Source: Corallococcus coralloides
GTDB lineage: Bacteria; Myxococcota; Myxococcia; Myxococcales; Myxococcaceae
NCBI RefSeq assembly: GCF_044792175.1
Contig: NZ_CP172866.1
Strand: one strand, 5' to 3'
DNA length: 64,000 bases
The position numbers were made by a program, and so were the translations under genes. The notes under the pieces were generated by a model that did no database searches, was not told the DNA's origin, and saw only the letters and a list, made by a program, of their open reading frames with translations. Shown here in pieces: positions 1 to 40,795 of this stretch (position 1 is its first letter; each line of letters starts with the position of its first letter).

Positions 1-74
1 ATCCACAGCTCAATCCCCTGGAACATCCCCTCTGCCTCACGCAGCCCCTGCGCCTGCTGGAGTCCTCCGCCTGG

Positions 75-3000
75 GTGGAGCACGTCCCGTTCGCGATGTT
101 CCTGGTGGACCTGCTGCGTCCCGCGACGCTGGTGGAGCTGGGGACGCACACCGGCGTGTCCTACTCCGCGTTCTGCCAGGCGGTGGACGCGCTGAAGCTG
201 GAGACGCGCTGCCACGCGGTGGACACCTGGCAGGGCGACCCGCACGCGGGCTTCTACGGGCCGGACGTCCTCGCGGACCTGCGCGCGCACCACGACCCGC
301 TCTACAGCCGGTTCTCCCAACTGCACCCGATGACCTTCGACCAGGCCCTGGGCCAGTTCGAGGACGGCTCCATCGACCTGCTCCACATCGACGGCTGCCA
401 CGAGTACGCGCAGGTGAAGGCGGACTTCGAGCGCTGGCGCCCCAAGCTGAGCGCGCGCGGCGTCGTCCTCTTCCACGACACCCACGTGCACGAGCGCGAC
501 TTCGGCGTCTGGCGGCTGTGGGAGGAGCTGCGGGGCCAGCATCCCTCCTTCGAGTTCGAGCACGGCTTCGGTCTGGGCGTGCTCGCGGTGGGCCCGGAGC
601 AGCCGGAGGGGCTGTTGGCCCTGACGAGCACCCGGGACGCGGAGCGCGAACACGTGCGGCAGGCCTTCGCCACGCTCGGCGGGCGCCTGACGCTCCTGCT
701 GCACCGGCAGCACCTGCTCGACGCCTACGGCCAGAAGGAACAGCAGGCCGCGGACCACGCGCGTCAGGCGCAGCAGCTCCAGGCGGAGCTGGACGCCGCC
801 CGCGAAGCGGCGCGCGACACCGCGAGCACCCTTCGCGAGTTCGAAGGCCGGCTCGCGCGGATGGGCCTGGCCCAGCGGATGCTCCAGGAGGAGCTGGGCC
901 GCAAGAACGCCCGCATCTACGAACTGGACGCGCACGTGGCGACCCAGGGCTCGCAGTTGGCGCACATCAACGGCAGCCTCGCCTGGAAGGCCATCAACCG
1001 CTACTGGGCCATGCGCGAGCGCGTGCTGCCCCCCGGCACGAAGCGCGGCCACCTCTACCAGAAGAGCAAGGGCACGCTGCACAAGGTGGGCGCGAAGCTG
1101 ATCAAGCTGCCCGCGAAGAAGGGCGCCCTCCAGGCCCTGCGCGCCGCGAAGGCCGCCCTCACGCCGGCCGCCCCCGTCCCCCCCACCGCCGCCTTGGTCG
1201 AGGCCCCGAGCGCGCCGCCCGCGCGCCCGGCGCCGTGGACCGCGCCGCTCACGCACGTCTCCCAGGCCAGCCTGGGCCGGCGCATCCTGATCATCGCGGA
1301 GCTGTCGCTGCCCCAGTGCAAGCGCTACCGCGTGGATCAGAAGGTCGCCATGTTCCACCGGCTCGGGTACGACGTCACCGTCCTGCGCTGGAACGACCAC
1401 GAGGAGTGCAAGGCCGCGCTCCAGTTCCACGGCCTGGTCATCTACTACCGGGTGCCCGCCTTCCCCGGCGTGGAGGAGCTACTGGCGGAGACCCGGCGCC
1501 TGGGCCTCCCGCACTTCTTCGACGTCGACGACCTCATCTTCGACGTGGAGGAGTACCAGCGGAACACCAACGTGCAGCGGCTGCCCGCGAACGAGCGCGA
1601 GCTGCTGCTCAACGGCGCGAAGCTCTACCGCAAGGCGCTCAGCCTGTGTGAGCACGCCATCGCCAGCACGCCCACCATCGCGGAGCAGATGTCCCGCGTC
1701 ATCTCCGGCAAGGTCTACGTCGTCGAGAACTGCCTGGACGACGGCATCCTGGAGCTGGCCCGGGAGATGGAAGCGCGCCCGCCCGCGGTGGACCCGGACA
1801 CGGTCACCATCGGCTACGGCAGCGGAACGCGCACGCACGACGCGGACTTCACCATCGCCGCAGACGCCATCCTCGCGGTGATGGAGCGCCATCCGAACGT
1901 GCGCCTGGCCATCCACGGCTTCCTGGAGCTGCCGGAGGGCTTCTCGCGCTTCTCCGACCGCGTCTTCCGCATCCCGTTCCTGGACGCGGACGACTACCTG
2001 CGCGCGCTCGCGTCCTGGCAGATCTCCATCGCGCCGCTGGAGCAGACGGTCTTCAACGACGCCAAGAGCAACATCAAGTTCATCGAGGCGTCCATCTTCC
2101 GCGTGCCCGCGGTGTGCTCCGGCTCCGGGCCGTTCCGGGAGATCATCGACCACGGCCGCAACGGCTTCATCGCCACCACCCGTGAGGAGTGGGAGTCCGC
2201 GCTCTCCGCGCTGGTGCAGGACGCGTCGCTGCGCAAGCGCATGGGCGAGGAGGCGCACCGCAGCGTGCTGTCGCGCTACCACCCGGCGGTCGTGGCCACG
2301 GAGCGGCTGCAGCCCATCCTCCAGCACCTGCCGCCCGCGCCGCCGCCGCGCCTGAAGGTCCTGGAGGCCAACATCCTCTTCGCGCCCCTGAGCTTCGGCG
2401 GGGCGACCGTCGTCACGGAGCAACTGGCGCACCAGTTGAAGGCGGAGGGCTGCGACGTCACCGTGTTCACCGGCATCATGAACTCGCCGCTGCCCGCCTA
2501 TTCGGTGGTGCGCTACGAGGCGCTGGGCCTGCCGGTCATCGCCACCCAGGTGCCGTCCCTCACCGACCGCGCCCAGGAGTACCAGAACCCGCGCATGGGG
2601 GAGACCTTCACCCAGGTGCTCAAGGCCGTGCGCCCGGACGTGGTGCACTTCCACTCCATCCAGCTCCTGAGCTCCGCGCTCGCCACGGCGTGCGCCGCGG
2701 AGGGCATCCCGTACACCATCACCGTGCATGACGCGTGGTGGCTGTGCGAGCGCCAGTTCATGGTCCGCGAGGACTCCACGTACTGCGGCCAGAAGGGCAT
2801 CGACCTGCGCGTGTGCACCAAGTGCGTGCCGGACTCGCGCTACACCTTCAAGCGCACGTTCGCCCTGCGCAAGGTGCTGGACGGCGCGGCCCTGCTGCTG
2901 GCGCCCAGCGAGTTCCAGCGCCAGCTCTACATCGCCAACGGCGTCGCGCCGGAGCGCATCGTCGTGAACAAGAACGGCGTGCTGCTGCCCGGCCGCGCGC

Positions 3001-3608
3001 GCGCCCCGCGCCCCGCGAACGCCCCCGTGCGCTTCGCCTACCTGGGCGGCCGCGCGGGGCACAAGGGGTACTTCTGGCTCAAGGACATCCTGGAGTCGGT
3101 GCCGGAGTCCGGCTGGGTCCTGAAGATGACCGACATCCAGTTGCGCATGGGGTCGGCCTCCATCGACGCGAAGGAATGGAAGGTGAAGGGCCAGGTGGAG
3201 GTGGTGCCTCCGTATGATCAGGACGGGATGGACGCCTTCTTCGACGGAGTGGACGTGCTGCTGATGCCCTCGCAGTGCAAGGAGAGCTTCGGGCTGACCG
3301 TGCGCGAGGCCATGGCCCGGAACGTGTGGGTGGTCACCACGGCGTCGGGCGGCGTCAGCGAGGACATCGTGGAGGGCGTCAACGGCAACGTCGTGGACAT
3401 GTCGGACGCCGACGGCTTCCGCCGCGTGCTGCGCGACCTGGTGGCCCACCCGGAGCGCATCGCGCGCGACCCGAACGCCCAGCGCACCCCGGTGCGCGAC
3501 TACGAGACCCAGGCCCGGGAGCTCCACGCGCTCCTGTCCGGTCTGGTGAATCCTCCCGCCCGGAGCACGCCCCGCCAGGACGCCAGCGCCGCGGTGCCCC
3601 ACCGTTGA
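75..3608 (+). CDS. Multidomain polysaccharide biosynthesis protein: N-terminal class I SAM methyltransferase (Methyltransf_24/TylF-like), coiled-coil, Pro/Ala linker, GT-B glycosyltransferase, C-terminal GT4 glycosyltransferase
   Basis: The ORF runs 75..3608 and starts with GTG at 75. There is no in-frame stop upstream, so the true start may lie before the window. The N-terminus has a TylF/CmcI-like methyltransferase region ([30 protein letters not shown]). Residues about 180-300 have coiled-coil heptads ([16 protein letters not shown]...). A second domain has GT1-type signatures. The C-terminal domain carries the GT4 E-x7-E region ([38 protein letters not shown]). Confidence 0.75.
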
Positions 3609-3625
3609 ACCCCCGGAGACGCTCC

Positions 3626-4498
3626 ATGCCCTTGTCCCAGCTCAAGGCCCTGATTCCTCCCGCGATCAAGACCGCCGTGCGCGCACAGCTCCAGACGGGG
3701 CTGATGCGCACGGAGAACCAGTTGGCGTCGCTCCGGTCGCGCTGGTCGCCGCCGGCCCCCGTGGAGCCGTCACCGCCGGTCGTCGAGGCGCCGCCACCGC
3801 CGGCCCCCGCGCTTCCGCCCATCACCCGGGAGCTCATCGCGGCCCAGTACCTGCGCGGCGAGGGCCTGGAGATTGGAGCCCTGTCCAATCCCACGAAGGT
3901 GCCCGCCGGGGTCCGGGTCCGCTATGTGGACGTGGCGCCCATCGACGTGCTGCGCGCCCGCTTCCCGGAGGTGGCCGACCGCATCGTCACGCCGGACATC
4001 GTGGACAACGGCGAGGAGCTGGGCACGGTGGCGCCGGACTCCCAGGACTTCGTCATCGCCAACCACGTCCTGGAGCACTGCGAAGATCCCATCGGCACGC
4101 TGAAGAACTTCCTCCGGGTCCTGCGCCCCGGAGGCATCCTCTTCATGGCCATCCCGGACAAGCGCTTCACCTTCGACCTGCCCCGGGAGCTCACCTCCGC
4201 GGCGCACGTCGTGGAGGACCACCTGAAGGGGCCGGAGGTCTCCCGGCGCGCCCACTACGACGAGTGGCTGCGCCTCATCGACCGGAAGGAGGGCGAGGAG
4301 CTGGCCCGCCTGACGGAGGACTTCCTCCAGAACCGCACGAACATCCACTTCCACGTGTGGACCTTCAACGAGATGTCCGAGCTGTTCTCCGCGGCCCGCA
4401 ACCAGTTGGGCCTGCCCTTCGACGTCAAGCTGGCCTTCCTGGATCCGCCGTGTCTGGAGGTGGTGTGGGTCCTGGAAGTGACGAAGCCCCGGGCCTGA
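3626..4498 (+). CDS. Class I SAM-dependent methyltransferase (Methyltransf_11/23-like)
   Basis: The ATG at 3626 has a GGAG 6-9 nt upstream. The listed ORF 3275..4498 overlaps the upstream gene, so I chose the internal start. The protein has the motif VIANHVLEHCEDPIGTLKNFLRVLRPGGILFMAIPDK, typical of SAM methyltransferases. Confidence 0.75.
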   Translation: MPLSQLKALIPPAIKTAVRAQLQTGLMRTENQLASLRSRWSPPAPVEPSPPVVEAPPPPAPALPPITRELIAAQYLRGEGLEIGALSNPTKVPAGVRVRYVDVAPIDVLRARFPEVADRIVTPDIVDNGEELGTVAPDSQDFVIANHVLEHCEDPIGTLKNFLRVLRPGGILFMAIPDKRFTFDLPRELTSAAHVVEDHLKGPEVSRRAHYDEWLRLIDRKEGEELARLTEDFLQNRTNIHFHVWTFNEMSELFSAARNQLGLPFDVKLAFLDPPCLEVVWVLEVTKPRA

Positions 4499-4502
4499 GC
4501 GC

Positions 4503-5900
4503 CTACGCCGGGCCGTAGTAGCGCTGGTACACGGTGGTGAGCGTCACCACCGTGGTGAGCAGGATGAAGCCGGCGATGAGCACCGGCTTGAGGCGCGTCA
4601 GCGCGCGCGGTGCCCAGGTGGGCGGGGCCAGCGCCACCACCAGCAGCGGCGTGTAGGGCAACAGGTAGCGGCCCTGCACCCCGTCCACGTGGTTCGCGCC
4701 CGGCGCCGTCCACGCCAGGTACAGCATGGCCTGGATGGCCAGTACGCCCGCCACCGCCACCCCCAGCGCCACCGCGCGCTCGCGCCAGCCCACCTTCGGC
4801 GCGGCCCCGTCGGCGTCCAGCACCATCACCCCCAGGAGCAACGCGGCCAGCCCGAGGAGCGCGGGGCGGGGCACCGGCGTGTCCAGCCAGCCCAGCACGC
4901 CGCCGCCCTGGTGCAGGAAGTCCGGCAGCCGCGTCCAGAAGTCGCTCACCAGCACGCCCAGCACCTGGAAGGGGTGCGCGCGCACGTGGGCCACCTGCGC
5001 CACCACCTCGCTGGGGCGGAAGATGTCCCGCACCGTGGCGGACCACGCGAACTGGAGCAGCGCGGGCACGGCGACGATGGCGGCCAGGGCCAGGGCATAG
5101 CGGCCGCGCGTCCCCAGCCGGGTGAGCGGCAGCAGCAGGAACACCAGCGTCAGCGGCAGGTAGGCCTGCTTGCACAGCGCCACGAACACCGCGCTCGCCA
5201 GCAGCAGGCCCAGTTGCTTCGCGCCCAGCGGCCCCGGGTGCGCGAAGGTGAAATGCAGCGACAGCGCCACCAGCAGCAGGCACGCCGACATCGTGATGGG
5301 GTCCGCGGACACGGACGCGCGCTGGAAGAGCACCATGGGCGTGAGCGCCAGCAGCGCGAAGGCCCACCGCTGGAAGGGCATCAGGCGCAGCGCCACCGCG
5401 GTGAGCACCAGCGCCACCAGCACGTTGCCCAGCCGGCCCGCCCACAGCACCACCACCGGGGGCGCCTCCAGGATCCGCGCGGGCGCCATGCCCAGCGACT
5501 GCGGGAAGTAGACCAGCGGGAAGTAGATGGCGGACGCGGCGAAGCGCCACTCCTGGGTGTCCTGGGGCGCCAGCGCCGCGTGCATCGCGTCGCGCAGGCG
5601 CTGCCGGTCCTGGCGCGCCGCGGGGTTGCCGCCCACGCCCTCGGACACCTCCTGCGCCACCCGCACGATGCTGCGCGGGAGCTGCCCGCCCGCGTCACCC
5701 ACCGGGATGCGCGTGGCCGTGAGCTGCCCCTCGGAGACCTGATACGCGCGGTAGAAGTGCGCCGGCTCGTCCGCCACCTGGAACGGCGGGGTGAGGAAGC
5801 TCAACACCGCGCCCAGCACCGCGGCCACGACGAGGAAGGCCACGACGGGCGCGATGAAGAACGGACGCAGCGGGGACGGGGACGGGGCAGACGGAAGCAT
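4503..5900 (-). CDS. Polytopic integral membrane protein, DUF2142/GT-C-like (candidate polyprenol-phosphate-sugar dependent glycosyltransferase)
   Basis: The 465-aa protein has at least 10 hydrophobic segments. Its N-terminus has a TM helix followed by a loop containing DEPAHFYRAYQ, which is reminiscent of the DUF2142/ArnT-like GT-C fold. It sits next to a GT2/DUF2304 pair. Confidence 0.55.
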   Translation of the reverse strand: MLPSAPSPSPLRPFFIAPVVAFLVVAAVLGAVLSFLTPPFQVADEPAHFYRAYQVSEGQLTATRIPVGDAGGQLPRSIVRVAQEVSEGVGGNPAARQDRQRLRDAMHAALAPQDTQEWRFAASAIYFPLVYFPQSLGMAPARILEAPPVVVLWAGRLGNVLVALVLTAVALRLMPFQRWAFALLALTPMVLFQRASVSADPITMSACLLLVALSLHFTFAHPGPLGAKQLGLLLASAVFVALCKQAYLPLTLVFLLLPLTRLGTRGRYALALAAIVAVPALLQFAWSATVRDIFRPSEVVAQVAHVRAHPFQVLGVLVSDFWTRLPDFLHQGGGVLGWLDTPVPRPALLGLAALLLGVMVLDADGAAPKVGWRERAVALGVAVAGVLAIQAMLYLAWTAPGANHVDGVQGRYLLPYTPLLVVALAPPTWAPRALTRLKPVLIAGFILLTTVVTLTTVYQRYYGPA

Positions 5901-5927
5901 GGAGGACGGAGGGGGCCCGGTGGGCCC

Positions 5928-6344
5928 TCAGGCGGCGTGCGGGTCGCGCCGGGCTGCGGCGGCGGGGGGGACGGCTTCGGGACGGGGCTGCGCGCGCGCG
6001 GCGCGCTCGGCCTCCGCGGAGGTGAGCAGGGCGACCTCCTGGGCCAACCGCTTGAGCTGCTGGCGCTGATCCGCCACCTGGAGGCTCAGCCGGTACACCA
6101 GCCACATGAGGCACGACAGGGCGATGAAGAAGAGGGCGGACGGGGCGTAGTAGATGCCCATGGCCGCCGCCAGCGCGTCGATGCCGTGGCGCCACAGCGA
6201 CAGGCCCGCGATGGCCGCCGCCACCAGCAGCCACGCGAAGGTGTGCCGCTCGCTGGTGCGCCGGCCCCGGGCCGACCACAGGACGCTGAAGGCGAAGACG
6301 GCCGCGAAGGCCACGCCGATGAGGCTGGAGCGAAGCATGGGCAT
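5928..6344 (-). CDS. Small membrane protein, DUF2304-like (partner of polyprenol-phosphate GT2)
   Basis: The start ATG at 6344-6342 overlaps the TGA stop of the upstream GT2 gene (tgATG), which suggests translational coupling. The protein MPMLRSSLIGVAFAAVFAFSVLW... has three predicted TM helices and a charged C-tail. The longer listed ORF (to 6413) would overlap the GT2 gene. Confidence 0.5.
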   Translation of the reverse strand: MPMLRSSLIGVAFAAVFAFSVLWSARGRRTSERHTFAWLLVAAAIAGLSLWRHGIDALAAAMGIYYAPSALFFIALSCLMWLVYRLSLQVADQRQQLKRLAQEVALLTSAEAERAARAQPRPEAVPPAAAARRDPHAA

Positions 6345-7042
6345 CAGACGGGACGGACCCGCTCCATGAGCAGGGCGAAGGACACCTTCGCCATGTAGAA
6401 GGCCGACTTCCACGGCGTCAGCGAGCTGGTGCCGGTGAGGCGCGGCCGCATGCGCACCGGCACCTCCGCGATGGCGAAGCCCTGGCGCGCCGCCATCAGC
6501 ACGCTCTCCGGCTCCGGGTAGTCATGCGGGTGGACGCGCGCGAAGAAGCGGATCGCCTGCGGACCGAAGCCCCGGAAGCCGGAGGTGGGGTCGGTGATGC
6601 GGTGGCGGCTCAGCGTGGACAGGAGGCCCGCCAGGAACCGGTTGCCGAAGCGGCGCAGCCGCGTGGAGCGGAAGCTGGTGACGCCCGCGAAGCGGCTGCC
6701 GATGACCAGCTCCACGCCCGACTGGAGCGCCTCGCGCAGCGCGGGCACGGACGCCGGGTCATGCTGGCCGTCGCCGTCCATGCGGATGACGTGGTCGTAC
6801 CCGTTGCGGGACGCGAACAGCAGGCCGCTGGCCTCGCCCGCGGCGACGCCCAGGTTGAAGGGATGGCTGAGCACCCGCGCCCCGCAGTCCCGCGCGCGCT
6901 GCGCCGTGGCGTCGCGCGAGCCGTCGTCCACCACGAGCACGTCGAACTCCGGCAGCGCCTCGCGCAGCTCCGCCACCGTCGAGCCGATGCACTCCTCTTC
7001 GTTGAAGGCCAGCAACACGATGAGGCCCCGTCGGGTGTCCAT
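6344..7042 (-). CDS. GT2 family glycosyltransferase, dolichol/polyprenol-phosphate mannosyl(glycosyl)transferase-like
   Basis: The protein has the DPM1/GtrB-like motifs VVDDGSRD, MDGDGQHDP and ITDPTSGFRGF. Confidence 0.8.
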   Translation of the reverse strand: MDTRRGLIVLLAFNEEECIGSTVAELREALPEFDVLVVDDGSRDATAQRARDCGARVLSHPFNLGVAAGEASGLLFASRNGYDHVIRMDGDGQHDPASVPALREALQSGVELVIGSRFAGVTSFRSTRLRRFGNRFLAGLLSTLSRHRITDPTSGFRGFGPQAIRFFARVHPHDYPEPESVLMAARQGFAIAEVPVRMRPRLTGTSSLTPWKSAFYMAKVSFALLMERVRPV

Positions 7043-7334
7043 TCAGCCCCCTCCTGCGTCTTCCGGGCCTTCTACCGTTACCCGGCACGCGCGAACAACC
7101 CGCTACGCCCGGTTCTCCAACACTCGCGCAATGAAGATACCCGCGTCCTCCAGCCTCAGGCCCCGGGCCAGCGCTCCCAGCCCCTGGCCCGCCAGGGAGA
7201 CGAGCGGCCGGGGGAGCCTGCGCAGGGCGCGCGCCCGGTCCGCCAGGCTGTCGGCCTCGAAGTCCAGGCCCCCGAAGGTGTCCCTGACGCTTCCGCGCGT
7301 CCCCCGTCACGTGGCCGCCCGGCTCCCAGGCCGG

Positions 7335-7838
7335 TCAGCGGCCCCGGCGCCGCGAGGGCGCGCGGCGCGGCGGCTCCTTCGGGGGCTCCTGCGGGGTCGG
7401 AGGCAGGCGCGACAGCAACTGCTCCAACTGGCGCTCCACCTCCTGGCGCCACAGGGACTGCGTGCGCGCCTGGACGCGCTGGTGCTCGTGGATGAGCGCG
7501 AGCGCGTCCAGGATGGCCTCGTTGAACTCCACCTGGCGCCGGAGCGCCTCGTTGATGAAGGGCTGGAACGCCAGCCGGAAGGCGCGCTTGGCCATCACCA
7601 GCGCGGGCCCCACCAGGGGTCGGTGGGACGAAGGCGGATCCGCGTAGCGCGCGTCGCGCTTCAGCCGCGCGCCCTCCAGGAACGGGGGCCACGCGGCGTT
7701 GATGGCCGGGGCCTGGGTGGCGGCGAGGCGCCGGCGCAGCGCCTCCACCTTCTCGGGCTCCGGCGTGGGCAGCCGCGCCAGGGACTCCAGCACCGCCTCC
7801 ACCGTGGGGTCGCGGGTGATGAGGTCCTCAGCGCGCAT
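7335..7838 (-). CDS. Hypothetical protein
   Basis: The amino-acid composition is balanced, unlike the overlapping R/P-rich shadow ORFs. Its start overlaps the stop of the GT4 gene by 11 nt. I recognise no domain. Confidence 0.4.
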   Translation of the reverse strand: MRAEDLITRDPTVEAVLESLARLPTPEPEKVEALRRRLAATQAPAINAAWPPFLEGARLKRDARYADPPSSHRPLVGPALVMAKRAFRLAFQPFINEALRRQVEFNEAILDALALIHEHQRVQARTQSLWRQEVERQLEQLLSRLPPTPQEPPKEPPRRAPSRRRGR

Positions 7839-9474
7839 GCGGGTGTCCTCCCACGTCCAGCTCCCTCGCCAGCTCCGCCGCGAGCGACACCAGGTCGCGC
7901 CCCGGGGTGAGCTCCCACAGCTTCTTTCCCAGGACCTGCTTGACGCCCGCGTCCGGCGCGCGGCGGGCCTCCCAGACGCCCGCGACGCACGCCTCCGGCG
8001 GCAGCCGCGACACGGTCCTCCGGGCGACCTCCTCTCCGGCGCCCGCGAACAGCAGCGGCCCGGAGGCGCACCGCACGCCCGTCTCCAGCGACGACGACGG
8101 CGGGCTGACCCCCTCCAACCCGAAGGAGGGCTCGTCCGGCGTGAAGCGCCGCACCCGCGTCACGCCCTCGTGCTCGTCGCGCGGGGCCAACTGGAGGGGC
8201 AGCACCTGCCGGCGCACCGTCCACAGGCTCGCGTCCGGAAGCCGGTCCACCACCGCGCGCGCCAGCCGGGACATGGGCGCGTCCGGCGCGGCGTCGAAGC
8301 CGGGGCACACGACGGTGGCGGCGGGTCCGGCGGGAGGGCGGGCGTGGGGCGCGGCTCCCTGGAGGAAGGGCGTGAGCGCCTCGCGTACGCGCTGGGCCAC
8401 GGCCTGCTGGTCCAGGGACGCCAGGCGCTGGCGCTGCGCCTCCACCACCCGCGAGCGCAGGGCGGGGTCGCGCTCCAGCACCGCCAGCAGCCCCGCCACC
8501 TGCGCGGGGTCGTCCGACAGCGTGGTGAGGCCCGCGCCGCCCATGGTCTCCGGCACCGCCGCGGCGCCGTAGGCCACCACCGGCACGCCCCGGTACATGG
8601 CCTCCAGCAGCGGCACGCCGAAGCCCTCGTGGCGGCTCATGGAGAGGTACGCGGTGGCGGAGGCGAAGCACGCGGACAACTGGGCGGCGTCCACCCGCCC
8701 CAGGAACACCACGCGATCCGGGCCCAGTTGCTCGCGCAGCGCCAGCACGGACGCGTCATAGGGCGCGCTGCTGTAGAGCGTCCCCGCCACCAGCAGCCGG
8801 CTCCGGGGCTGGTACAGGCGCTGGTAGGCGGTGAAGACGCGCAGCACGTCCTCCAGCCGCTTGCTGGGCACGGTGCGGCCCACGAAGAGCACGTTGGCGC
8901 ACCCGTCCGCCATCTGCTCGCGCAGGGCCGCGTCCGGCGCCACGTTGAACGCGTTCCAGTCCACCGCGAAGGGCAGGACGCTCGCGTCCGGGTAGCCCGC
9001 GGCGGACAGCTCCTCCACGCTGAAGTGCGAGTAGGCCCAGGCGTGCGTCACGTGCTCGCGGAGCTGGAGCAGCTCCTCGCGCGCCAGCATGCAGCCGCGG
9101 GCGACGTGGCGGTCCGTGCCCTCGAAGAACCGCTCGGGCGTGACGTTGTGGTACAGCAGCGCCTTGCGCCCCTTGGCCTTGGCCACCAGCGGCACCAGCC
9201 TCGACTCGAAGCTGTGGTGGACGAGCAGCGCGGTGTCCCGGCCCGCGTCGCGGGCGTAGTCCAGGGCGGGGCGCACCTCGTCGCGGCACGCCTCGTCCCA
9301 CTGCTCCGCGTAGATCTCCGACGCGTACCCCCACCCGCGCAGCAGGTCGCGCAGGTAGCGCACCTGGTTGCCCACGGCGTCGCCCCAGGCCAGCCGCGGC
9401 ACGAGCTGGTGGACCGCTCCGGCGCTCGAGGACGCGGTCCCTCGCTTGCTGTTCCAGAGGCTCACGTTGGGCAA
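7828..9474 (-). CDS. GT4 family glycosyltransferase (GT-B, Glycos_transf_1)
   Basis: The C-terminal half has SMSRHEGFGVPLLEAMYRGVPVVAYGAAAVPETMG, the GT4 E-x7-E signature. The gene is transcribed divergently from rfbB. Confidence 0.8.
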   Translation of the reverse strand: MPNVSLWNSKRGTASSSAGAVHQLVPRLAWGDAVGNQVRYLRDLLRGWGYASEIYAEQWDEACRDEVRPALDYARDAGRDTALLVHHSFESRLVPLVAKAKGRKALLYHNVTPERFFEGTDRHVARGCMLAREELLQLREHVTHAWAYSHFSVEELSAAGYPDASVLPFAVDWNAFNVAPDAALREQMADGCANVLFVGRTVPSKRLEDVLRVFTAYQRLYQPRSRLLVAGTLYSSAPYDASVLALREQLGPDRVVFLGRVDAAQLSACFASATAYLSMSRHEGFGVPLLEAMYRGVPVVAYGAAAVPETMGGAGLTTLSDDPAQVAGLLAVLERDPALRSRVVEAQRQRLASLDQQAVAQRVREALTPFLQGAAPHARPPAGPAATVVCPGFDAAPDAPMSRLARAVVDRLPDASLWTVRRQVLPLQLAPRDEHEGVTRVRRFTPDEPSFGLEGVSPPSSSLETGVRCASGPLLFAGAGEEVARRTVSRLPPEACVAGVWEARRAPDAGVKQVLGKKLWELTPGRDLVSLAAELARELDVGGHPHAR

Positions 9475-9588
9475 GGCATTTACCCCTGGCCCGGACCGGC
9501 CACAAGTGGTCGCGCGCTTGCCTTGACGGGGATCCGTCCCTCCGCTACGGAGGGCGCTTTCTCCCGACGTACGAGTGGTGGCGTGTCA

Positions 9589-10614
9589 ATGAACGTCCTG
9601 GTGACAGGGGGCTGCGGCTTCATCGGCTCCAACCTGGTGAAGTACCTCCGCCGCGAGCGGCCCGACTGGAAGATCATCAACCTCGACAAGCTCACGTACG
9701 CGGGCAACCTCGAGACCCTCGCCGACCTGGAAGGCGACCCGAAGCACGTCTTCGTGCGCGGCGACATCGGCAACCGGGAGCTGGTGGAGCACCTGCTCGT
9801 CCAGCACGGCGTCGACGCCGTGATGCACCTGGCGGCCGAGAGCCACGTGGACCGCTCCATCCTGGGCCCGGAGGTGTTCATCAACACCAACGTGCTGGGC
9901 ACCCAGCAGCTCCTGGAGGCCTGCCGCGCCCGGGGCGTGAAGCGCTTCCTGATGGTCTCCACCGACGAGGTCTACGGCTCGCTGGGCCCCACGGGCGCCT
10001 TCACGGAGACCTCTCCGCTGCAGCCCTCCAGCCCGTACTCCGCCTCCAAGACGTCCTCGGACCTCATCGCGCTGGCCTACCACCACACGTTCAAGATGGA
10101 CGTGGTGGTGACGCGCTGCTCGAACAACTACGGCCGCTACCAGTTCCCGGAGAAGCTCATCCCGCTGATGGTGGTGAACGCGCTGCACGACAAGCCGCTG
10201 CCCGTCTACGGCGACGGCGCCAACGTGCGCGACTGGCTCCACGTGGAGGACCACTGCCAGGGCCTGCTGGTGGCGCTGGAGAAGGGCCGTGCGGGCGAGG
10301 TCTACAACATCGGCGGCGGCTCCGAGCGGCGCAACATCGAGATCGTCAAGGGCATCCTGGGCCTCTTGAAGAAGCCCGAGTCGCTCATCCAGTACGTGGC
10401 GGACCGGCCCGGCCATGACCGGCGCTACGCCATCGACCCCACGAAGATCCGCACGGAGCTGGGCTATCAGCCGAAGCACACCTTCGAGCAGGGGCTGGCG
10501 GAGACGGTGACCTGGTACGTGGAGAACCGCGCCTGGTGGGAGCGCGTCACCAGCGGCGCCTACCGCCAGTACTTCGACACCCAGTACAAGGCCCGTCTGC
10601 AGGGGCGGGGTTAG
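9589..10614 (+). CDS. rfbB: dTDP-glucose 4,6-dehydratase
   Basis: The protein starts MNVLVTGGCGFIGSNLV and contains the YSASK catalytic motif. It aligns over its full length to RmlB. The ATG is at 9589 inside the listed ORF 7699..10614. Confidence 0.95.
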   Translation: MNVLVTGGCGFIGSNLVKYLRRERPDWKIINLDKLTYAGNLETLADLEGDPKHVFVRGDIGNRELVEHLLVQHGVDAVMHLAAESHVDRSILGPEVFINTNVLGTQQLLEACRARGVKRFLMVSTDEVYGSLGPTGAFTETSPLQPSSPYSASKTSSDLIALAYHHTFKMDVVVTRCSNNYGRYQFPEKLIPLMVVNALHDKPLPVYGDGANVRDWLHVEDHCQGLLVALEKGRAGEVYNIGGGSERRNIEIVKGILGLLKKPESLIQYVADRPGHDRRYAIDPTKIRTELGYQPKHTFEQGLAETVTWYVENRAWWERVTSGAYRQYFDTQYKARLQGRG

Positions 10615-10618
10615 CGCC

Positions 10619-11518
10619 ATGCGCTTCGTCGTCACGGGGGCCAACGGCCTGGTGGGCAGCCGCGTCTGCGCGCAGTTGACCGGGCGCGGACACGAAGTCG
10701 TGGGCCTGGGGCGCGGGCCCCGGCGCACGGGGGGCACGCACGGCTACGTGGAGGTGGACCTCACGCGCGAGCAGGACGTGGCTGCGGCCATCGCCCAGGC
10801 CCGTCCGGAGGCCATCATCCACCCCGCCTCCATGACGGAGGTGGACGCGTGTGAGAAGGACCCGGACGCGGCCTACGCGGCGAACGTCCACGCCACCGCG
10901 GCGGTGGCCCGCGCGGCGAAGGCGGCGGGCGCGCACCTGGTGCACGTCTCCACGGACTACGTCTTCGACGGGGACGCGGGGCCTTATTCGGAGGACGCGC
11001 TGCCCAACCCGCGCGGCGTCTACGCGCTGACCAAGCACATGGCGGAGCAGGCGGCGCGCGTCTTCGTGCCGGGCTGCGCCATCGCGCGCACCGCGGTGGT
11101 GTACGGCTGGCCCGCGGCGGGGCGCCCCAACTTCGGGGCCTGGCTGGTGGGGGCGCTGGAGAAGGGCCAGCCGGTGAAGCTCTTCGAGGACCAGGTGGTG
11201 TCCCCCAGCTTCGCGGACAGCGTGGCCGCCATGCTGGTGGAGCTGGGCGAGCGGCGGCTCGGCGGCGTGTGGAACACCTGCGGCGGCACGGTCATCGACC
11301 GGGTGGGCTTCGGCCGGGCGCTCTGCGAGGTGTTCGGCTTCGACGCGTCGCTCATCACCCCCACGCGGATGGCGGACCTGAAGCTGGCCAGCCCCCGCCC
11401 GCTGCGAAGCGGCCTCAAGACGGACAAGGTTCGTACGGAGCTGAAGGCCCAACCGCTGGAGCTGGCGGAGTCCCTGGCGCGCTTCCACGCGGCCTGGAAG
11501 GCGCACCGCGCCGGTTGA
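10619..11518 (+). CDS. rfbD: dTDP-4-dehydrorhamnose reductase
   Basis: The protein starts [16 protein letters not shown] and has YALTKHMAE. The RmlD-like fold begins 4 nt after the rfbB stop. Confidence 0.9.
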
Positions 11519-11589
11519 GCATCCGCGCGTGGCGGCCGGGCCGCGCGCATCCGTTTCGCGGCCGCGCCGTGGAACACAGGGGAGCACGC

Positions 11590-12471
11590 ATGAAGGGAAT
11601 CATTCTGGCCGGGGGTTCGGGCACGCGCCTGTACCCGCTGACGCGCGTGGTGAGCAAGCAACTGCTGCCCGTCTACGACAAGCCGATGATCTACTACCCG
11701 CTGACGACGCTGATGCTGGCGGGCATCCGGGAGATCCTCGTCATCTCCACGCCGCAGGACCTGCCGCGCTTCCGCGAGCTGCTGGGCGACGGGGAGCAGT
11801 GGGGCATCCGCCTCCAGTACGCCGAGCAGCCGCGCCCGGAGGGCCTGGCGCAGGCGTTCGTCATCGGCCGGGACTTCGTGGGGAAGGATCCGGTGTCGCT
11901 CATCCTGGGTGACAACATCTTCTACGGCCACGGCATGGGGGAGCTCACGCAGCGCGCGTCGAAGCGCACGCAGGGCGCCACGGTGTTCGGCTACTACGTG
12001 AAGGATCCGGAGCGCTACGGCGTGGTGGAGCTCAACGCCCAGCACAAGGCCGTCAGCATCGAGGAGAAGCCGGCGAAGCCCAAGTCGCACTACGCCGTCA
12101 CGGGCCTGTACTTCTACGACAACCAGGTCATCGACATCGCGGCGAACCTCAAGCCGGGCAAGCGCGGCGAGTATGAGATCACCGACGTCAACGCGGAGTA
12201 CCTGCGCCGCGGCCAGCTCAACGTGGAGCTGATGGGGCGCGGCTATGCGTGGCTGGACACCGGCACGCACGAGTCGCTGATGCAGGCCTCCAACTACATC
12301 GAGATCATCGAGCGCCGTCAGGGCCTCAAGGTGGCCTGTCCGGAGGAGATCGCCTTCCGCATGGGCTACATCGACGAGCAGCGGCTGACGGCGCTGGCGG
12401 AGCCCATGCGCAAGAACGAATACGGCCAGTACCTGTTGGACCTGGTGGAGAAGCGGGGGGCGGTGTCGTGA
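11590..12471 (+). CDS. rfbA: Glucose-1-phosphate thymidylyltransferase
   Basis: The protein starts [18 protein letters not shown] and contains [11 protein letters not shown], both RmlA hallmarks. Confidence 0.95.
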
Positions 12472-13013
12472 AGGTCACCCCGCTGGCGATTCCGGACGTC
12501 CTGCTCATCGAGCCGAAGGTGTTCGGCGACGACCGGGGCTTCTTCCTCGAGTCCTTCCACGCGAAGCGCTACGCGGACGTGGGCGTCGTGGGACCGTTCG
12601 TGCAGGACAACCTGTCGCGCTCGGTGAAGGGCACGCTGCGAGGGCTGCACTTCCAGGAGCCGAACGCGCAGGGCAAGCTGGTGCAGTGCCTGGCGGGCGC
12701 GGTGTGGGACGTGGCGGTGGACATCCGCAAGGGGTCGCCCACGTTCGGCCGCTGGGTGGCCGCGGAGCTGACGGGCGAGAACAAGCACCAGCTCTGGGTG
12801 CCGGCGGGCTTCGCGCACGGGTTCTGCGTGGTGAGCGACTCGGCGGACTTCTTCTACAAGTGCACGGCGCTGTACTCCCCGGAGTCCGAGCGCAGCGTGG
12901 TCTGGAATGATCCGGACCTGGCCATCCCCTGGCCCGTGAAGGAGCCCCTGCTCTCGCCCAAGGATCAGCGCGCGCCCCGGCTGAAGGACGCGCCCGTGCT
13001 GCCCGTCTTCTGA
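12468..13013 (+). CDS. rfbC: dTDP-4-dehydrorhamnose 3,5-epimerase
   Basis: The GTG start overlaps the rfbA stop (GTGA). The protein contains [15 protein letters not shown] and GLHFQ, an RmlC cupin. Confidence 0.9.
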
Positions 13014-18525: not shown

Positions 18526-19512
18526 ATGCGATCCGACCTGGCAGAACGCTGGCTCACACCCGATGGTCAGCGCCGGCGCGAGCGCTTGATCGCCTCGGGA
18601 TTTCAAGGACCCTGGCGTGAAGTCCTCAAGGGCTTTCCGGGAGCAGATGCATTGGGACCCCACGTGGGGGATCTCCGAGGCATCGACCTCGCTCAGGAAG
18701 AGCTACCGGGCGCGGAGTTCGTTCATGTTCGGCTCGATGGCGCCCGCCTGGATGACTGCGGGCTCAACGAGGCGCGGCTCGACTTCACCACGCTGTCTGG
18801 TGCCTCGCTGACCTGGGCGCGCATGGAGCGCGCCAGCCTGATGGCTTGCGTCGCGATGGCCACGTGCTGGGACGATGCTTCCTTGGAAGGGGCAGTCCTC
18901 ACGGCTTCAAACCTGGTTCACGGCTCATTCCGTCGCGCCCGACTTCAGGGCGCCCGTTTGACCGCAGCGACGTTGATGAAGGCGGACCTGCGCTGCGCTG
19001 ATCTCCGAGGCGCGGAGTTGTCCTTCTGTGACATGGAGGAAGCGTGCGTCGCGGGTGTTCGCACGGATTGGCCTCGCACCTATGGGCGGGCAGGGCTGGG
19101 CAATGCGGACGTGAGCTATTACCGGGATCATGGCGGGTACCCATCATTCATGGATGCCATCCTGCTCGACCCGGGTATGCGCGCGCTCCGATGGTTGGAC
19201 AGGAAGGAAATCCTGATGCATGTGGAAGCAGCGGTCGAGATGAGCCCCGCGGTGGATGCTGAAATCCTCGCGCTCCTCCTGGATCCAGACTTTGAGGCAG
19301 CGGTGCGCTTACGACTCGAGGCCCCGGATGAGCTGCGGTACGAGGCTGCCTCCAGCCTCATGTGGGCTCTTGGCTTGGATCAAAGCAAGAATGTGTGGGG
19401 ACGCTCAGGGGTGTCGATTTGTCAGCGCTGGATGGCAAACCTCCGCAAGAACATGGCCGCCAGCATCCAACAACGCTGGCGGCGGGCCGAGGTGTCCGTC
19501 TATTCGGCGTAG
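18526..19512 (+). CDS. Pentapeptide-repeat protein
   Basis: The protein has runs of A(D/N)L-type pentapeptides (TLSGASLTWARMERASLMACVAMATCWDDASLEGAVLTASNLVHGSFRRARLQGARLTAATLMKADLRCADLRGAEL). I chose the internal ATG at 18526. Confidence 0.7.
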   Translation: MRSDLAERWLTPDGQRRRERLIASGFQGPWREVLKGFPGADALGPHVGDLRGIDLAQEELPGAEFVHVRLDGARLDDCGLNEARLDFTTLSGASLTWARMERASLMACVAMATCWDDASLEGAVLTASNLVHGSFRRARLQGARLTAATLMKADLRCADLRGAELSFCDMEEACVAGVRTDWPRTYGRAGLGNADVSYYRDHGGYPSFMDAILLDPGMRALRWLDRKEILMHVEAAVEMSPAVDAEILALLLDPDFEAAVRLRLEAPDELRYEAASSLMWALGLDQSKNVWGRSGVSICQRWMANLRKNMAASIQQRWRRAEVSVYSA

Positions 19513-20159
19513 TATGTGGTGATCTGGAGGGCCAAGGAGAGCAACGCACCGGAACTCGTGAACTCCACGACGCCACGGTCAATGTCGGCTCGGGTCATCT
19601 GATACTGCGCAGACGCAATCGGGTCGTCAAAGAGGGTGTCAACGTCAATGACGGTGAACTGGATGGGGGCCGAAAGCAGATCGGTACTCAGGACGTCGCA
19701 TGCCCCCTGCGTCCACGTAGGGGTGAAGCTTTCAACTTCCTCCGAAGGGGGCGCAGGCTGTGCGTTGGGACAGGACAGCTTGACCACGACATCCGGCGGC
19801 GAGCCATCTACGTCCCAGTCACTGTTGTCAGCAGGATCCTGCGGAGCGATCGTGGCGCGCAGGGGCTGGATCTTCGTGCGAATGGTGGGGGTGTAGCACT
19901 GTTGCTGTGACGGATGGCAGATGGTCCCGGTCGCGCACTTCGAGCATTTGGTGCCGGTAACACCGCACGCGTCGTTGGTACGAACTTCGACGCACTGGTT
20001 CGTGGTCGGATCGCAGCAGCCTGCACAATTCGCTGCAGTACAGATTTCTTCGAGTGGCGGGTTCTCCGTGATGGGGCCTGAGCTTGAGTCTTCGGGCCCA
20101 CAGCCTGCTAGCAAGAGAATCGACGTCAGCCCAAGAAGAATTCGGTTGTTGAATGTCAT
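19500..20159 (-). CDS. Cys-rich lipoprotein, paralog B (lipobox LLAGC)
   Basis: The protein starts MTFNNRILLGLTSILLLAGCG. It has a Cys-rich N-terminal region and the DWDVDGSPPDVVVKLSCPNAQ block shared with 14810..15430. It lies 6 nt downstream of the SIR2-like gene on the same strand and is lower in GC. Confidence 0.6.
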   Translation of the reverse strand: MTFNNRILLGLTSILLLAGCGPEDSSSGPITENPPLEEICTAANCAGCCDPTTNQCVEVRTNDACGVTGTKCSKCATGTICHPSQQQCYTPTIRTKIQPLRATIAPQDPADNSDWDVDGSPPDVVVKLSCPNAQPAPPSEEVESFTPTWTQGACDVLSTDLLSAPIQFTVIDVDTLFDDPIASAQYQMTRADIDRGVVEFTSSGALLSLALQITTYYAE

Positions 20160-20165
20160 TGGTTG

Positions 20166-21893: not shown

Positions 21894-21932
21894 CGAGGGC
21901 GAACGCTATCAGAACCGCAGGCGGGGCCTAAT

Positions 21933-23498: not shown

Positions 23499-23511
23499 GG
23501 ATGTCTCCTGT

Positions 23512-28710: not shown

Positions 28711-28814
28711 GGAGGTGCCCCCCGGGTCGTCATGGGTGGGACGACCTGGCACCCAGGTTCTGGCGCACTCCTCGCCGCGGTTGCATCCCCCGTGAGGGTG
28801 ATTGACACCCACGC

Positions 28815-28857
28815 GAAAACGCCGCCTCGCTTCCGGAGGACCGGAAACGGGCGGCGT
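28815..28857 (-). terminator. Rho-independent terminator of the ABC-F gene
   Basis: The plus strand 28819-28857 reads aa-gccgcc-tcgc-ttccgg-agga-ccggaa-acg-ggcggc-gt. It has an outer stem of about 8 bp and an inner stem of 6 bp. On the minus-strand RNA the hairpin is followed by UUUUCGCG. Confidence 0.45.
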
Positions 28858-28882
28858 AGGCACTGCCAAGAGTAGCGAAGGA

Positions 28883-31887
<3,005 letters not shown>

Positions 31888-37363: not shown

Positions 37364-37366
37364 GTC

Positions 37367-40666: not shown

Positions 40667-40795
40667 CGATGAAACCCCGATCCGCGAGGGCTGGCGCGAC
40701 CACGACCGTCGGCCCGCCGCTCGACGTGAACACTCCGGGTTGCGGATTATCAGTGCGCCGGGTGCTGGGGCAATGCGTTAAAGAATCCGGTGTGG

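Follow-up and report, generated by a model that had tools for sequence, protein, structure and literature searches.

Genes of the locus

The window analysed here, a 64,000-nt stretch of the Corallococcus coralloides contig NZ_CP172866.1, opens inside a long forward gene encoding a multidomain protein, which is followed by a stand-alone methyltransferase gene, a series of genes on the opposite strand and the dTDP-L-rhamnose pathway genes. The features are as follows.

1..3608, + strand: multidomain protein gene (open frame, GC3 0.97, 95%-identical C. exiguus contigs)
3..617, + strand: domain of SAM-dependent O-methyltransferase type, aa 1-205 (aa 44-160 match Pfam Methyltransf_24, E 3.9e-25)
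636..971, + strand: predicted coiled-coil spacer, aa 212-323 (single helix in the AlphaFold2 model, heptad periodicity, length variation in the family)
972..1262, + strand: post-coil segment, aa 324-420 (S..W motif and Lys/Arg-rich amphipathic helices, then a Pro/Ala-rich disordered linker)
1263..2372, + strand: first GT-B module, aa 421-790 (aa 623-767 match Pfam Glyco_trans_1_2, E 8e-9; GT4-like by fold)
2373..3605, + strand: second GT-B module, aa 791-1201 (Glyco_transf_4 and Glycos_transf_1, canonical GT4)
3626..4498, + strand: stand-alone SAM methyltransferase, 290 aa (Methyltransf_11/23; ATG at 3626, GGAGA 7 nt upstream)
4503..5900, − strand: DUF2142 polytopic membrane protein, 465 aa (Pfam E 2.6e-69)
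5928..6338, − strand: DUF2304 small membrane protein, 136 aa, in the same cassette as the DUF2142 gene
6344..7042, − strand: GT2 enzyme, 232 aa, in the same cassette as DUF2142/DUF2304
7103..7283, − strand: remnant of a Methyltransf_23 gene, last ~56 codons (303-aa gene intact in C. exiguus)
7335..7838, − strand: ORF of 167 aa without a match to any family, conserved in Corallococcus relatives and overlapping its neighbour at 7828..9474
7828..9474, − strand: stand-alone GT4 glycosyltransferase, 548 aa (profile match)
9589-10614, + strand: rmlB, dTDP-L-rhamnose pathway
10619-11518, + strand: rmlD, dTDP-L-rhamnose pathway
11590-12471, + strand: rmlA, dTDP-L-rhamnose pathway
12468-13013, + strand: rmlC, dTDP-L-rhamnose pathway

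The frame of the multidomain gene is open from base 3 of the window, with no stop codon upstream, and ends at the stop codon at 3606-3608; its GC3 matches that of true genes of a 70% GC genome. In the C. exiguus contigs an ATG is found 4 nt ahead of base 1 (ccATGC, after which the window begins with ATCCACAGCTC), and the window holds 1201 codons and the stop out of a gene of about 1203 codons. A GTG at 75 was dropped as start codon because the frame is open further 5′ and the start in relatives falls 4 nt ahead of base 1. The length of 1177 aa given in an earlier, sequence-only reading of this DNA is therefore replaced by about 1203 aa on the basis of the C. exiguus ATG, which also bears out the remark in that reading that the 5′ end of the gene might lie beyond position 1. 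Full-length homologues measure 1166-1235 aa, one of them (P0001) being 94% identical and 1205 aa long.

The stand-alone gene at 3626-4498 is the second SAM methyltransferase noticed earlier just downstream. Its orthologue occupies the directly downstream position in three Corallococcus relatives (L001-L003) and in distant alphaproteobacterial loci, and Methyltransf_11 domains akin to its product are fused C-terminally in some members of the multidomain protein family. The DUF2142 protein may be a GT-C-type glycosyltransferase that acts in the periplasm and belongs to a Gtr-like cassette for side chains, for which the GT2 enzyme at 6344-7042 would be the candidate polyprenyl-phosphate sugar synthase; the DUF2142/DUF2304/GT2 cassette is missing from Corallococcus CP114039.1. 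Comparison with C. exiguus shows that a 742-bp deletion took out the rest of the Methyltransf_23 gene. The rmlBDAC genes (9589-13013) correspond to the rfbBDAC cluster that had been recognised 6 kb away. Neither Wzm/Wzt nor Wzx/Wzy was detected in the window by tblastn, or by Pfam on ORFs up to about 58.6 kb, in agreement with what had been read from the sequence; the sole ABC protein in the Pfam-swept ORFs is an ABC-F type ATPase (28883-30811). A tRNA scan of the window found zero tRNA genes and thus no tRNA landmark.

Architecture of the multidomain protein

Pfam and AlphaFold2 (models of the protein with pLDDT 83 and 92) resolve a single ORF into a methyltransferase, a predicted coiled-coil helix, a basic linker and two GT-B modules. 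Misassignment on profile search had been named as a risk to the earlier domain calls, which profile and fold searches uphold, labels aside. Matches in an NCBIfam search (BshA, EpsE, MshA and others) all fall far under the family cut-offs, and for this reason no equivalog name can be given to the protein. When the whole protein was compared with PDB sequences, no solved close relative emerged, and the only matches were weak ones of GT4 enzymes to the last module (E ≥ 1e-5).

The N-terminal methyltransferase was modelled as a Rossmann fold (pLDDT >90) whose best Foldseek matches are the sugar O-methyltransferase MeT1 of M. hassiacum and COMT/CCoAOMT-class enzymes. The motifs VELG..G and HID and residue H158 are invariant in its homologues, as are the SAM-loop residues (27-38 homologues compared). 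Its description as TylF/CmcI-like holds for the fold class, as judged by Foldseek, but not at the family level: TylF (PF05711) and CmcI-rhamnosyl O-MT (PF04989) gave no match at E ≤ 0.01, PF13578 (Methyltransf_24) alone being matched, and the TylF/CmcI assignment was rejected for lack of a Pfam profile match. A PF04989 match is present in one remote relative (P0050), within a second methyltransferase region. WbdD, for which PDB structures exist, was not matched at E ≤ 0.01 in the PDB sequence search, and the 50 best Foldseek matches to the methyltransferase model did not include it either. By analogy with characterised systems, the domain is proposed to be a chain-terminating (capping) module.

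The methyltransferase fold ends at about aa 200 and is separated by few residues from an uninterrupted helix of 112 residues (aa 212-323; pLDDT about 91-97 to aa 300) in the monomeric AlphaFold2 model of aa 1-446, which agrees with the roughly 110-aa coiled coil reported earlier. The hydrophobicity spectrum of this helix peaks at exactly 3.5 residues, the same power being reached in 9 of 300 shuffles, and 22 of the 33 a/d positions are hydrophobic, a figure that is only moderately convincing and counts for less than the spectrum and the pattern of coil lengths in the family. In 23 of 27 homologues the strongest hydrophobic period is a heptad harmonic (7, 3.5 or 2.35). Coil length across 27 homologues ranges from 77 to 208 aa and is the sole length-variable segment, the first GT-B module measuring 360-369 aa; multiples of 7 account for 7 of the 14 distinct coil lengths. 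From its heptads the helix is predicted to be a coiled coil, presumably in oligomeric form, and by analogy it is proposed to act as a molecular ruler.

The coil is followed by a motif with the family consensus STSWRxTxPxR, in which S325 is invariant and W328 nearly invariant. The helices at aa 326-386 were modelled with low confidence and aa 387-417 as disordered (AlphaFold2). The segment carries 17 K+R against 2 D+E and is basic in all 27 homologues (27/27); it may be membrane-associated.

In the second GT-B module, Glyco_transf_4 (aa 798-993, E 1e-22) and Glycos_transf_1 (aa 1056-1151, E 6e-25) are accompanied by an E-x7-E motif, ESFGLTVRE, which is invariant in homologues and places the module in GT4, and by four invariant cysteines (C915, C928, C938 and C941). 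For the first module, structural and profile similarity does not point to CAZy GT1 (UGT-type) as the nearest class. The 'GT1+GT4' of the sequence-only reading is thus right for the second module on Pfam and motif evidence, but the first is also GT4-like and 'GT1' was a naming slip. Active-site-type residues are conserved in both modules, which by analogy may constitute the polymerase. GT4-type enzymes are retaining and with dTDP-β-L-Rha would produce the less common β-L-rhamnosides, so both GT4-like modules may use other donors.

Upstream genes in relatives and the homologue family

The sequence-only reading had proposed extending the sequence upstream to look for wzm/wzt, and all of the close relatives looked at, namely the C. 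exiguus contigs and Corallococcus CP114039.1, have these genes. The C. exiguus contigs share 95% DNA identity with the window over positions 1-12851, and the relatives L001-L003, at 92-95% DNA identity, all have upstream wzm and wzt genes, located 4.7-6.8 kb ahead of the multidomain gene. They encode a 259-aa Wzm (ABC2_membrane) and a 436-aa Wzt with ABC_tran and a C-terminal Wzt_C carbohydrate-binding module (CBM; 49.3 bits versus a cutoff of 30.4). Since both genes lie outside the window, we infer from the relatives that the window's own genome probably has them too. Three locus variants were observed among Corallococcus.

The Myxococcus locus (L086) has the gene order of the published O-antigen genes wzm-wzt-wbgA-sgmR-wbgB (MXAN_4623-4619), and its flanks, SLT, TPR/AIM24 and CDP-OH_P_transf (87% identical), are common to the Corallococcus locus, which judging from the sequence comparison is its positional orthologue. 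Wzm is 68% and Wzt 61% identical between the two genera; in Wzt the nucleotide-binding domain is 79.5% identical and the CBM 34.5%, a low value, as it should be for a CBM that recognises a serotype-specific terminus. The glycosyltransferase and methyltransferase genes between the shared flanks differ, and no counterpart of the multidomain protein was found in the Myxococcus O-antigen locus at E ≤ 1e-5.

The family of the multidomain protein is common in databases, with 3146 homologues at E ≤ 0.001; in 185,579 species genomes, 317 loci were counted. Among fused homologues from Proteobacteria and Myxococcota, wzm/wzt were found within 10 kb in 17 of 25 cases and rml genes in 16 of 25; one fused homologue with such a locus belongs to Caballeronia insecticola. 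Linkage to wzm/wzt with a CBM on Wzt was also detected in loci L006-L009, L011 and L013. In distant loci the CBMs were scored with ORF length as a proxy instead of tblastn, which missed them because the domain diverges too fast. By the same proxy, Wzt lacks a C-terminal CBM in Burkholderiaceae and Luteibacter loci that carry a fused homologue, so that the methyltransferase is not always coupled to cap-dependent export. The first GT-B module is strictly co-conserved with the methyltransferase-coil unit, and the third module may be GT4, GT2, WsaF-like, RgpF, or GT2 plus methyltransferase. It is possible, though we put it tentatively, that these proteins form one large, modular and uncharacterised family, in which a constant Methyltransf_24 domain, a heptad-variable coil, the STSWRxTxPxR motif, the basic linker and a GT-B module are combined with a swappable third module.

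Proposed function and its alternatives

The multidomain protein probably unites terminator, ruler and polymerase in one polypeptide for an ABC-transporter-dependent O-polysaccharide pathway, comparable to WbbB, K. pneumoniae O7 ORF6 and WsaE. A WbdD/WbdA- or WbbB-like role of this kind, in making a methylated glycan that contains rhamnose, had been suggested from the sequence alone, and the wzm/wzt genes of relatives, the flanks and the domains support it. A coiled-coil protein with a terminator at its distal end has been called the hallmark of the terminator-ruler strategy, which has been described as widespread, and this distal position marks terminators across the characterised systems (PMC11231755). 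WbbB of Klebsiella pneumoniae O12 and Raoultella terrigena likewise has an N-terminal terminator, an extended coiled coil and two C-terminal GT modules, and works in an ABC-transporter-dependent pathway with a CBM on Wzt, a rhamnose-containing glycan and rml genes nearby (PMC11231755). Its terminator, however, is a β-Kdo glycosyltransferase (GT99) and not a SAM methyltransferase, and because no WbbB chain was matched when the whole protein was searched against the PDB, the likeness is one of mechanism and kinship is not claimed. K. pneumoniae O7 ORF6 (methyltransferase-kinase-CBM-coiled coil-two GT2), whose terminator and polymerase roles have been demonstrated by experiment (PMC11231755), resembles the Corallococcus protein by description in its N-terminal methyltransferase, central coil and two C-terminal GT modules and in the wzm/wzt and rml genes of its locus. 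It differs in adding methyl-phosphate, in having an extra ~223-aa kinase and an Ig-like CBM between methyltransferase and coil, and in its GT2 (GT-A) modules, those of Corallococcus being GT-B/GT4-like.

WsaE of Geobacillus stearothermophilus NRS 2004/3a, which caps a rhamnan, consists of a 2-O-methyltransferase and two rhamnosyltransferase domains (PMC2943079) and is by description similar in its N-terminal O-methyltransferase followed by two GT domains, in a locus with wzm/wzt upstream and rml downstream (PMC2943079); some proteins of the Corallococcus protein's family have a WsaF-like third module. Unlike the latter protein, WsaE belongs to a Gram-positive bacterium and its glycan is attached to S-layer protein. 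In the WbdD/WbdA systems of E. coli O8/O9a and K. pneumoniae O5/O3 the Wzt CBM reads the cap, which is methyl in O8 and methyl-phosphate in O9a, the WbdD coiled coil has been shown to be a molecular ruler and WbdA consists of tandem GT4-type GT-B modules (PMC3482155, PMC11231755). A methyltransferase, a predicted coil and tandem GT4-like GT-B modules recur in the Corallococcus protein, but WbdD and WbdA are separate proteins, and the WbdD C-terminus is a membrane-binding helix where that of the Corallococcus protein comprises two GT modules. The TET operon of the Pseudomonas syringae CPA loci encodes Wzm, Wzt with a C-terminal domain, a WbdA-like bifunctional GT and an O-methyltransferase, the last two fused in some isolates, for a rhamnan O-chain (PMC7820976); these assignments are bioinformatic only and are set beside Corallococcus by description.

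In the proposed mechanism, where we infer a cap rather than internal methylation, the role of the coil as ruler, the methylated position, the sugars used as donor and acceptor and the delivery to LPS, the two C-terminal GT-B modules would lie near the membrane and, with other glycosyltransferases of the locus, extend an undecaprenyl-diphosphate-linked glycan at the cytoplasmic face. The N-terminal O-methyltransferase, of the cation-dependent type, would be held about 16-17 nm off by an oligomeric coil of about 112 residues, and only chains of sufficient length to reach it would be O-methylated at the non-reducing end, which would stop elongation. Wzt would then recognise the methyl cap through its C-terminal carbohydrate-binding domain, leading to export by Wzm/Wzt and ligation to lipid A-core. 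dTDP-L-rhamnose from RmlBDAC would provide at least one sugar of the glycan, the stand-alone methyltransferase (3626-4498) may add a further O-methyl group, and the DUF2142/DUF2304/GT2 cassette may attach a side-chain sugar in the periplasm.

It is rather unlikely that the methyltransferase acts on internal sugars of the repeat unit, as in the mycobacterial methylmannose polysaccharide, with the coil as an oligomeriser or scaffold and chain length set otherwise. The CBM-less Wzt of the Burkholderiaceae loci and the presence of two methyltransferases in the locus, three in C. exiguus, would suit such a role, but in this lineage Wzt has a Wzt_C CBM diverging much faster than its nucleotide-binding domain, a separate methyltransferase is on hand for internal methylation, and the fused one lies distally on a helix whose length varies by heptad multiples, the marker of terminators (PMC11231755). 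Export by Wzm/Wzt of a glycan other than LPS O-antigen (a capsule-like polymer, EPS, or a protein- or spore-linked glycan) appears improbable, even though waaL, an initiating phosphoglycosyltransferase and LPS core genes did not turn up in the window or in the relatives' 10 kb upstream, and WsaE-type enzymes work in S-layer protein glycosylation of Gram-positives (PMC2943079). Against it stand the flanks and the orthologous wzm and wzt shared with the Myxococcus O-antigen locus, and OPX/PCP-type capsule export genes were not found nearby in the relatives' loci; in M. xanthus the genes for the priming enzyme and ligase reportedly lie elsewhere as well (Perez-Burgos et al. 2019).

The division of labour among the glycosyltransferases offers a further alternative, in which the GT2 proteins encoded upstream (one of 283 aa, one of 473 aa and a 758-aa double GT2) polymerise a backbone containing rhamnose, the fused GTs make an adaptor or branch and the multidomain protein is mainly a WbdD-like terminator scaffold. 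Usual α-L-rhamnosyltransferases are inverting GT2 enzymes, as in O7 ORF6 (PMC11231755), the double GT2 shares 38% identity with the N-terminal portion of a 1275-aa GT encoded at the Myxococcus wbgA position, and the locus has at least seven GT modules in total, which counts against assigning polymerisation to the fused two. This arrangement is nonetheless quite improbable, given that the GT modules of the coiled-coil protein are polymerase components in WbbB and O7 ORF6 (PMC11231755) and that the first GT-B module is constant while the third module varies, a pattern that suits repeat-unit chemistry. A Variovorax homologue was also counted against the terminator-ruler-polymerase reading; its unrelated gene context and degenerate methyltransferase domain make it uninformative.

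To our knowledge, the O-antigen structures, biosynthesis and glycan chemistry of Corallococcus are uncharacterised. In M. xanthus the O-antigen matters in gliding motility and development. The capping/ruler strategy itself is already known, and the Corallococcus protein, an uncharacterised family member, does not amount to a new kind of biology. The few proteins characterised as terminator and polymerase in a single chain (WbbB, O7 ORF6 and WsaE) would gain an example that has GT-B modules and a methyltransferase alone, and the locus predicts a methyl-capped, rhamnose-containing O-chain whose modal length the helix of some 112 residues would fix. Should the family be general methyl-capping terminator-ruler-polymerases, coil length could predict the modal length of O-chains from the genome. 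In that case O-antigen diversification among Corallococcus strains would be stepwise, as the three locus variants suggest, and the Burkholderiaceae members, with their CBM-less Wzt, would stand for capping that is not tied to export control.

Module order of the large protein

At the 5′ edge of the window (G+C ∼70%; GC3 of real genes 0.9-0.97), the frame of the large plus-strand gene is open from base 3 to a stop at 3606-3608, which covers 1201 codons (numbered here from base 3) of a protein of ∼1203 aa. The best homologue, a 1205-aa C. exiguus protein annotated only as 'glycosyltransferase', is 94% identical over 100% of the query. Two C. exiguus contigs match window 1-7283 and 7282-12851 with 95% DNA identity, and their ATG, 4 nt ahead of window base 1, indicates that the gene is cut by the window edge and is short of only two codons. 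This bears out the suspicion in the sequence-only reading that the 5′ end lay beyond position 1, and a GTG at 75 was rejected as the start.

Pfam domains of the large protein
aa 44-160, Methyltransf_24
aa 623-767, Glyco_trans_1_2
aa 798-993, Glyco_transf_4
aa 1056-1151, Glycos_transf_1

NCBIfam returned GT4-type matches, all sub-threshold, and a PDB sequence search returned weak GT4 matches only, confined to the last module. In an AlphaFold2 model of aa 1-446 (38 homologues as input; mean pLDDT 83), aa 1-200 form a Rossmann methyltransferase (pLDDT >90), aa 212-323 one unbroken helix, aa 326-386 three helices of lower confidence and aa 387-417 a disordered, Pro/Ala-rich linker. Together, the Pfam domains and the models therefore give the order methyltransferase, long helix, basic linker, GT-B (GT4-like) and canonical GT4, confirming as a whole the earlier observation of a methyltransferase, a coil and two GT modules in one ORF. 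Two of its labels require revision. 'GT1' stems from the Pfam name 'Glycosyl transferases group 1'; the first GT module is GT4-like, and a test for GT1 membership failed. 'TylF/CmcI' holds for the fold class but not for the family, in which membership was tested and not found. Against the PDB (Foldseek), the methyltransferase model groups with cation-dependent class I O-methyltransferases, the top match being MeT1, a sugar O-methyltransferase of the methylmannose polysaccharide pathway of Mycobacterium hassiacum, followed by COMT and CCoAOMT-type enzymes.

The N-terminal half of the GT4 module contains four cysteines (C915, C928, C938 and C941; 'WWLCERQF...YCGQ...VCTKCV', window 2745-2825) that do not vary across 27 homologues of as little as 37% identity and may constitute a structural zinc site, which to our knowledge would be unusual among GT4 enzymes.

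The long helix and the segment behind it

For aa 212-323, hydrophobicity has its spectral peak at exactly 3.5 residues, with a power reached by 9 of 300 shuffles, and hydrophobic residues occupy 22 of the 33 a/d positions in one heptad register. In 23 of 27 homologues the strongest period falls on a heptad harmonic (7, 3.5 or 2.35). When 27 full-length homologues (37-94% identity) are aligned, the segment from the methyltransferase to the conserved S325/W328 motif ranges from 77 to 208 residues, with half of its 14 distinct lengths being multiples of 7, while the first GT module is steady at 360-369 residues. Periodicity, register and family lengths support a coiled coil and candidate ruler, and the limitation of length variation to this segment accords with a possible functional tuning of spacer length. 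As an alpha-helix rises ∼1.5 Å per residue, the 112 helical residues of the monomer model would span ∼16-17 nm.

Directly C-terminal to the coil (aa 325-345, window 975-1040) is a motif with the family consensus STSWRxTxPxR, of which the window copy is partly degenerate. A strongly basic segment follows the coil in every homologue (17 K+R vs 2 D+E in the window protein); by analogy with WbdD it would suit membrane association, and motif and segment could provide a docking site for the membrane or a partner.

Genes around the large gene

Features downstream of the large gene
3626-4498, 290-aa Methyltransf_11/23 enzyme
4503-5900, strand opposite to the large gene, DUF2142 protein
5928-6338, opposite strand, DUF2304 protein
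6344-7042, opposite strand, 232-aa GT2
7103-7283, minus strand, remnant of a third methyltransferase (∼56 codons)
7335-7838, 167-aa ORF with no family match
7828-9474, 548-aa GT4
9589-13013, rmlB, rmlD, rmlA and rmlC (dTDP-L-rhamnose genes)

The second methyltransferase and nearby rhamnose pathway of the sequence-only reading are thus both present and, as it also stated, neither Wzm/Wzt nor Wzx/Wzy was found in the window, the Pfam scan covering ORFs up to 58.6 kb of the 64 kb. The stand-alone methyltransferase is a regular partner of the large protein, since one also lies immediately downstream of family members in distant alphaproteobacterial loci and it is 27-35% identical to methyltransferase domains at the C-terminus of some family members. 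The remnant is the 3′ end of a Methyltransf_23 gene whose intact C. exiguus counterpart (locus L002, 17113-18024) encodes 303 aa, the remainder having been lost in a 742-bp deletion, and the window strain therefore probably lacks one O-methylation found in its closest relatives. The DUF2142/DUF2304/GT2 block (window 4502-7338) also occurs in C. exiguus and is missing from the otherwise collinear Corallococcus CP114039.1 (L001); from its domain types, it would resemble a three-component cassette of the Gtr type that adds side-chain sugars in the periplasm.

Farther along, window 19500-30811 has 60-65% G+C, vs ∼70%, and holds what looks like a defence island, with all its genes on the minus strand.

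Features of the putative defence island
20166-21893, minus strand, SIR2-like protein
21933-23693, minus strand, PD-Lambda-1 homologue (PADLOC E 2.7e-153; Pfam DUF4041 and T5orf172)
23512-28893, minus strand, 1793-aa Hhe/PDC-S37-type helicase-nuclease (DUF4011, AAA_11/12, MTES_1575)
28883-30811, minus strand, ABC-F ATPase, after the helicase-nuclease

Unrelated to the large gene, an OmpA/thrombospondin-type-3-repeat protein and, beside it, a 1136-aa protein bearing Kelch repeats as well as Big_9/cadherin-like and HYR domains are encoded at window 35609-40777 (minus strand).

Beyond the window, the search for wzm/wzt was successful in three Corallococcus relatives.

Genes upstream of the large gene in three Corallococcus genomes
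wzm, 259 aa, and wzt, 436 aa (ABC_tran and Wzt_C)
GT2, 283 aa; 473-aa protein with a weak GT2 match; double GT2, 758 aa
farther upstream, CDP-OH_P_transf, TPR/AIM24 protein and SLT

A Myxococcus locus shares these flanks (CDP-OH_P_transf is 87% identical) and has orthologues of the transporter genes (68% identity for Wzm, 61% for Wzt), followed by genes for a GT (1275 aa), a methyltransferase (684 aa) and a GT2 (780 aa), in agreement with the published M. xanthus O-antigen order wzm-wzt-wbgA-sgmR-wbgB (MXAN_4623-4619; bioRxiv 10.64898/2026.08.28.747804). Common flanks, transporter orthology and gene order place the window gene in that part of the myxobacterial O-antigen locus which varies and is specific to the serotype. 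Between the genera (L086/L087 vs L002), GT and methyltransferase content is wholly exchanged while flanks and transporter are kept; the double GT2 of Corallococcus (758 aa) shares 38% identity with the N-terminal portion of the 1275-aa Myxococcus GT found at the wbgA position. The nucleotide-binding domain of Wzt is 79.5% identical between them and its C-terminal carbohydrate-binding domain (CBM) only 34.5%, a divergence that fits a domain recognising different chain termini.

Proposed chain termination and the wider family

A polymerase-terminator strategy, in which a coil is the molecular ruler and a CBM-bearing Wzt takes terminated chains only, has been described for ABC-transporter-dependent glycans (PMC11231755, PMC3482155). 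WbbB (O12) carries terminator, coil and two polymerising GTs on one polypeptide, and K. pneumoniae O7 ORF6 (methyltransferase-kinase-CBM-coil-2xGT2) puts methyl-phosphate on a rhamnose-containing chain (PMC11231755). WsaE of G. stearothermophilus joins an N-terminal 2-O-methyltransferase to two rhamnosyltransferase domains (PMC2943079), and GT/O-methyltransferase fusions have been described in P. syringae CPA loci (PMC7820976). The Corallococcus protein fits the WbbB/ORF6 scheme with its own module set, having a methyltransferase only, without a kinase, and GT-B, not GT-A, modules in the putative polymerase part. Tests for membership in the WbdD and WbbB (GT99) families failed.

The WbbB/WbdD-like terminator-polymerase interpretation is supported by the O-antigen locus flanks and by wzm/wzt with Wzt_C upstream in relatives; the N-terminal methyltransferase would cap the chain, the coil would act as ruler and LPS would be the destination of the glycan. 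The main rival is that the methyltransferase acts on internal sugars rather than the chain end, to which its structural likeness to methylmannose polysaccharide enzymes and the Burkholderiaceae loci with a CBM-less Wzt both point. In the loci of Myxococcota and Halomonadaceae, Wzt is extended at its C-terminus by 186-215 aa. It is short and lacks the extension in Burkholderiaceae and Luteibacter (L016, L023, L039, L040, L042, L044, L051), where wzm/wzt and rml genes neighbour a fused methyltransferase-coil-GT-GT4 homologue, so that in some lineages capping seems not to be tied to cap-dependent export. The donor sugars of the two GT modules are putative. GT4-type enzymes are retaining, so that with dTDP-beta-L-rhamnose these modules would yield beta-L-rhamnosides; as candidate rhamnosyltransferases, the GT2 enzymes encoded upstream are just as plausible.

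Homologues of the large protein number 3146 at E<=0.001, with 317 loci in 185,579 species genomes. Methyltransf_24, coil and GT-B constitute the constant family unit, and the third module varies (GT4, GT2, GT2 plus Methyltransf_11, WsaF-like or RgpF-like). Among the best 80 genomic loci, the N-terminal methyltransferase is fused in 25, of which 17 have wzm/wzt and 16 have rml genes at a distance of up to 10 kb, Caballeronia insecticola being an example. Many other genomes, among them those of Nitrosomonas, Acetobacteraceae such as Acetobacter and Gluconobacter, and others (L020-L022, L046-L085), encode the GT-B-GT4 pair without this methyltransferase; tblastn found no wzm/wzt within 10 kb of most of these loci. 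For several acetic acid bacteria the match starts only within the coil (query aa ∼262-318), a sign that the GT-B-GT4 chassis may carry other N-terminal modules there. The many pair-only loci indicate that split and fused forms coexist, as for WbdA/WbdD vs WbbB. Overall, by analogy, the evidence supports a protein that would operate like WbbB and ORF6, a neatly modular O-antigen assembly protein of an ordinary kind.
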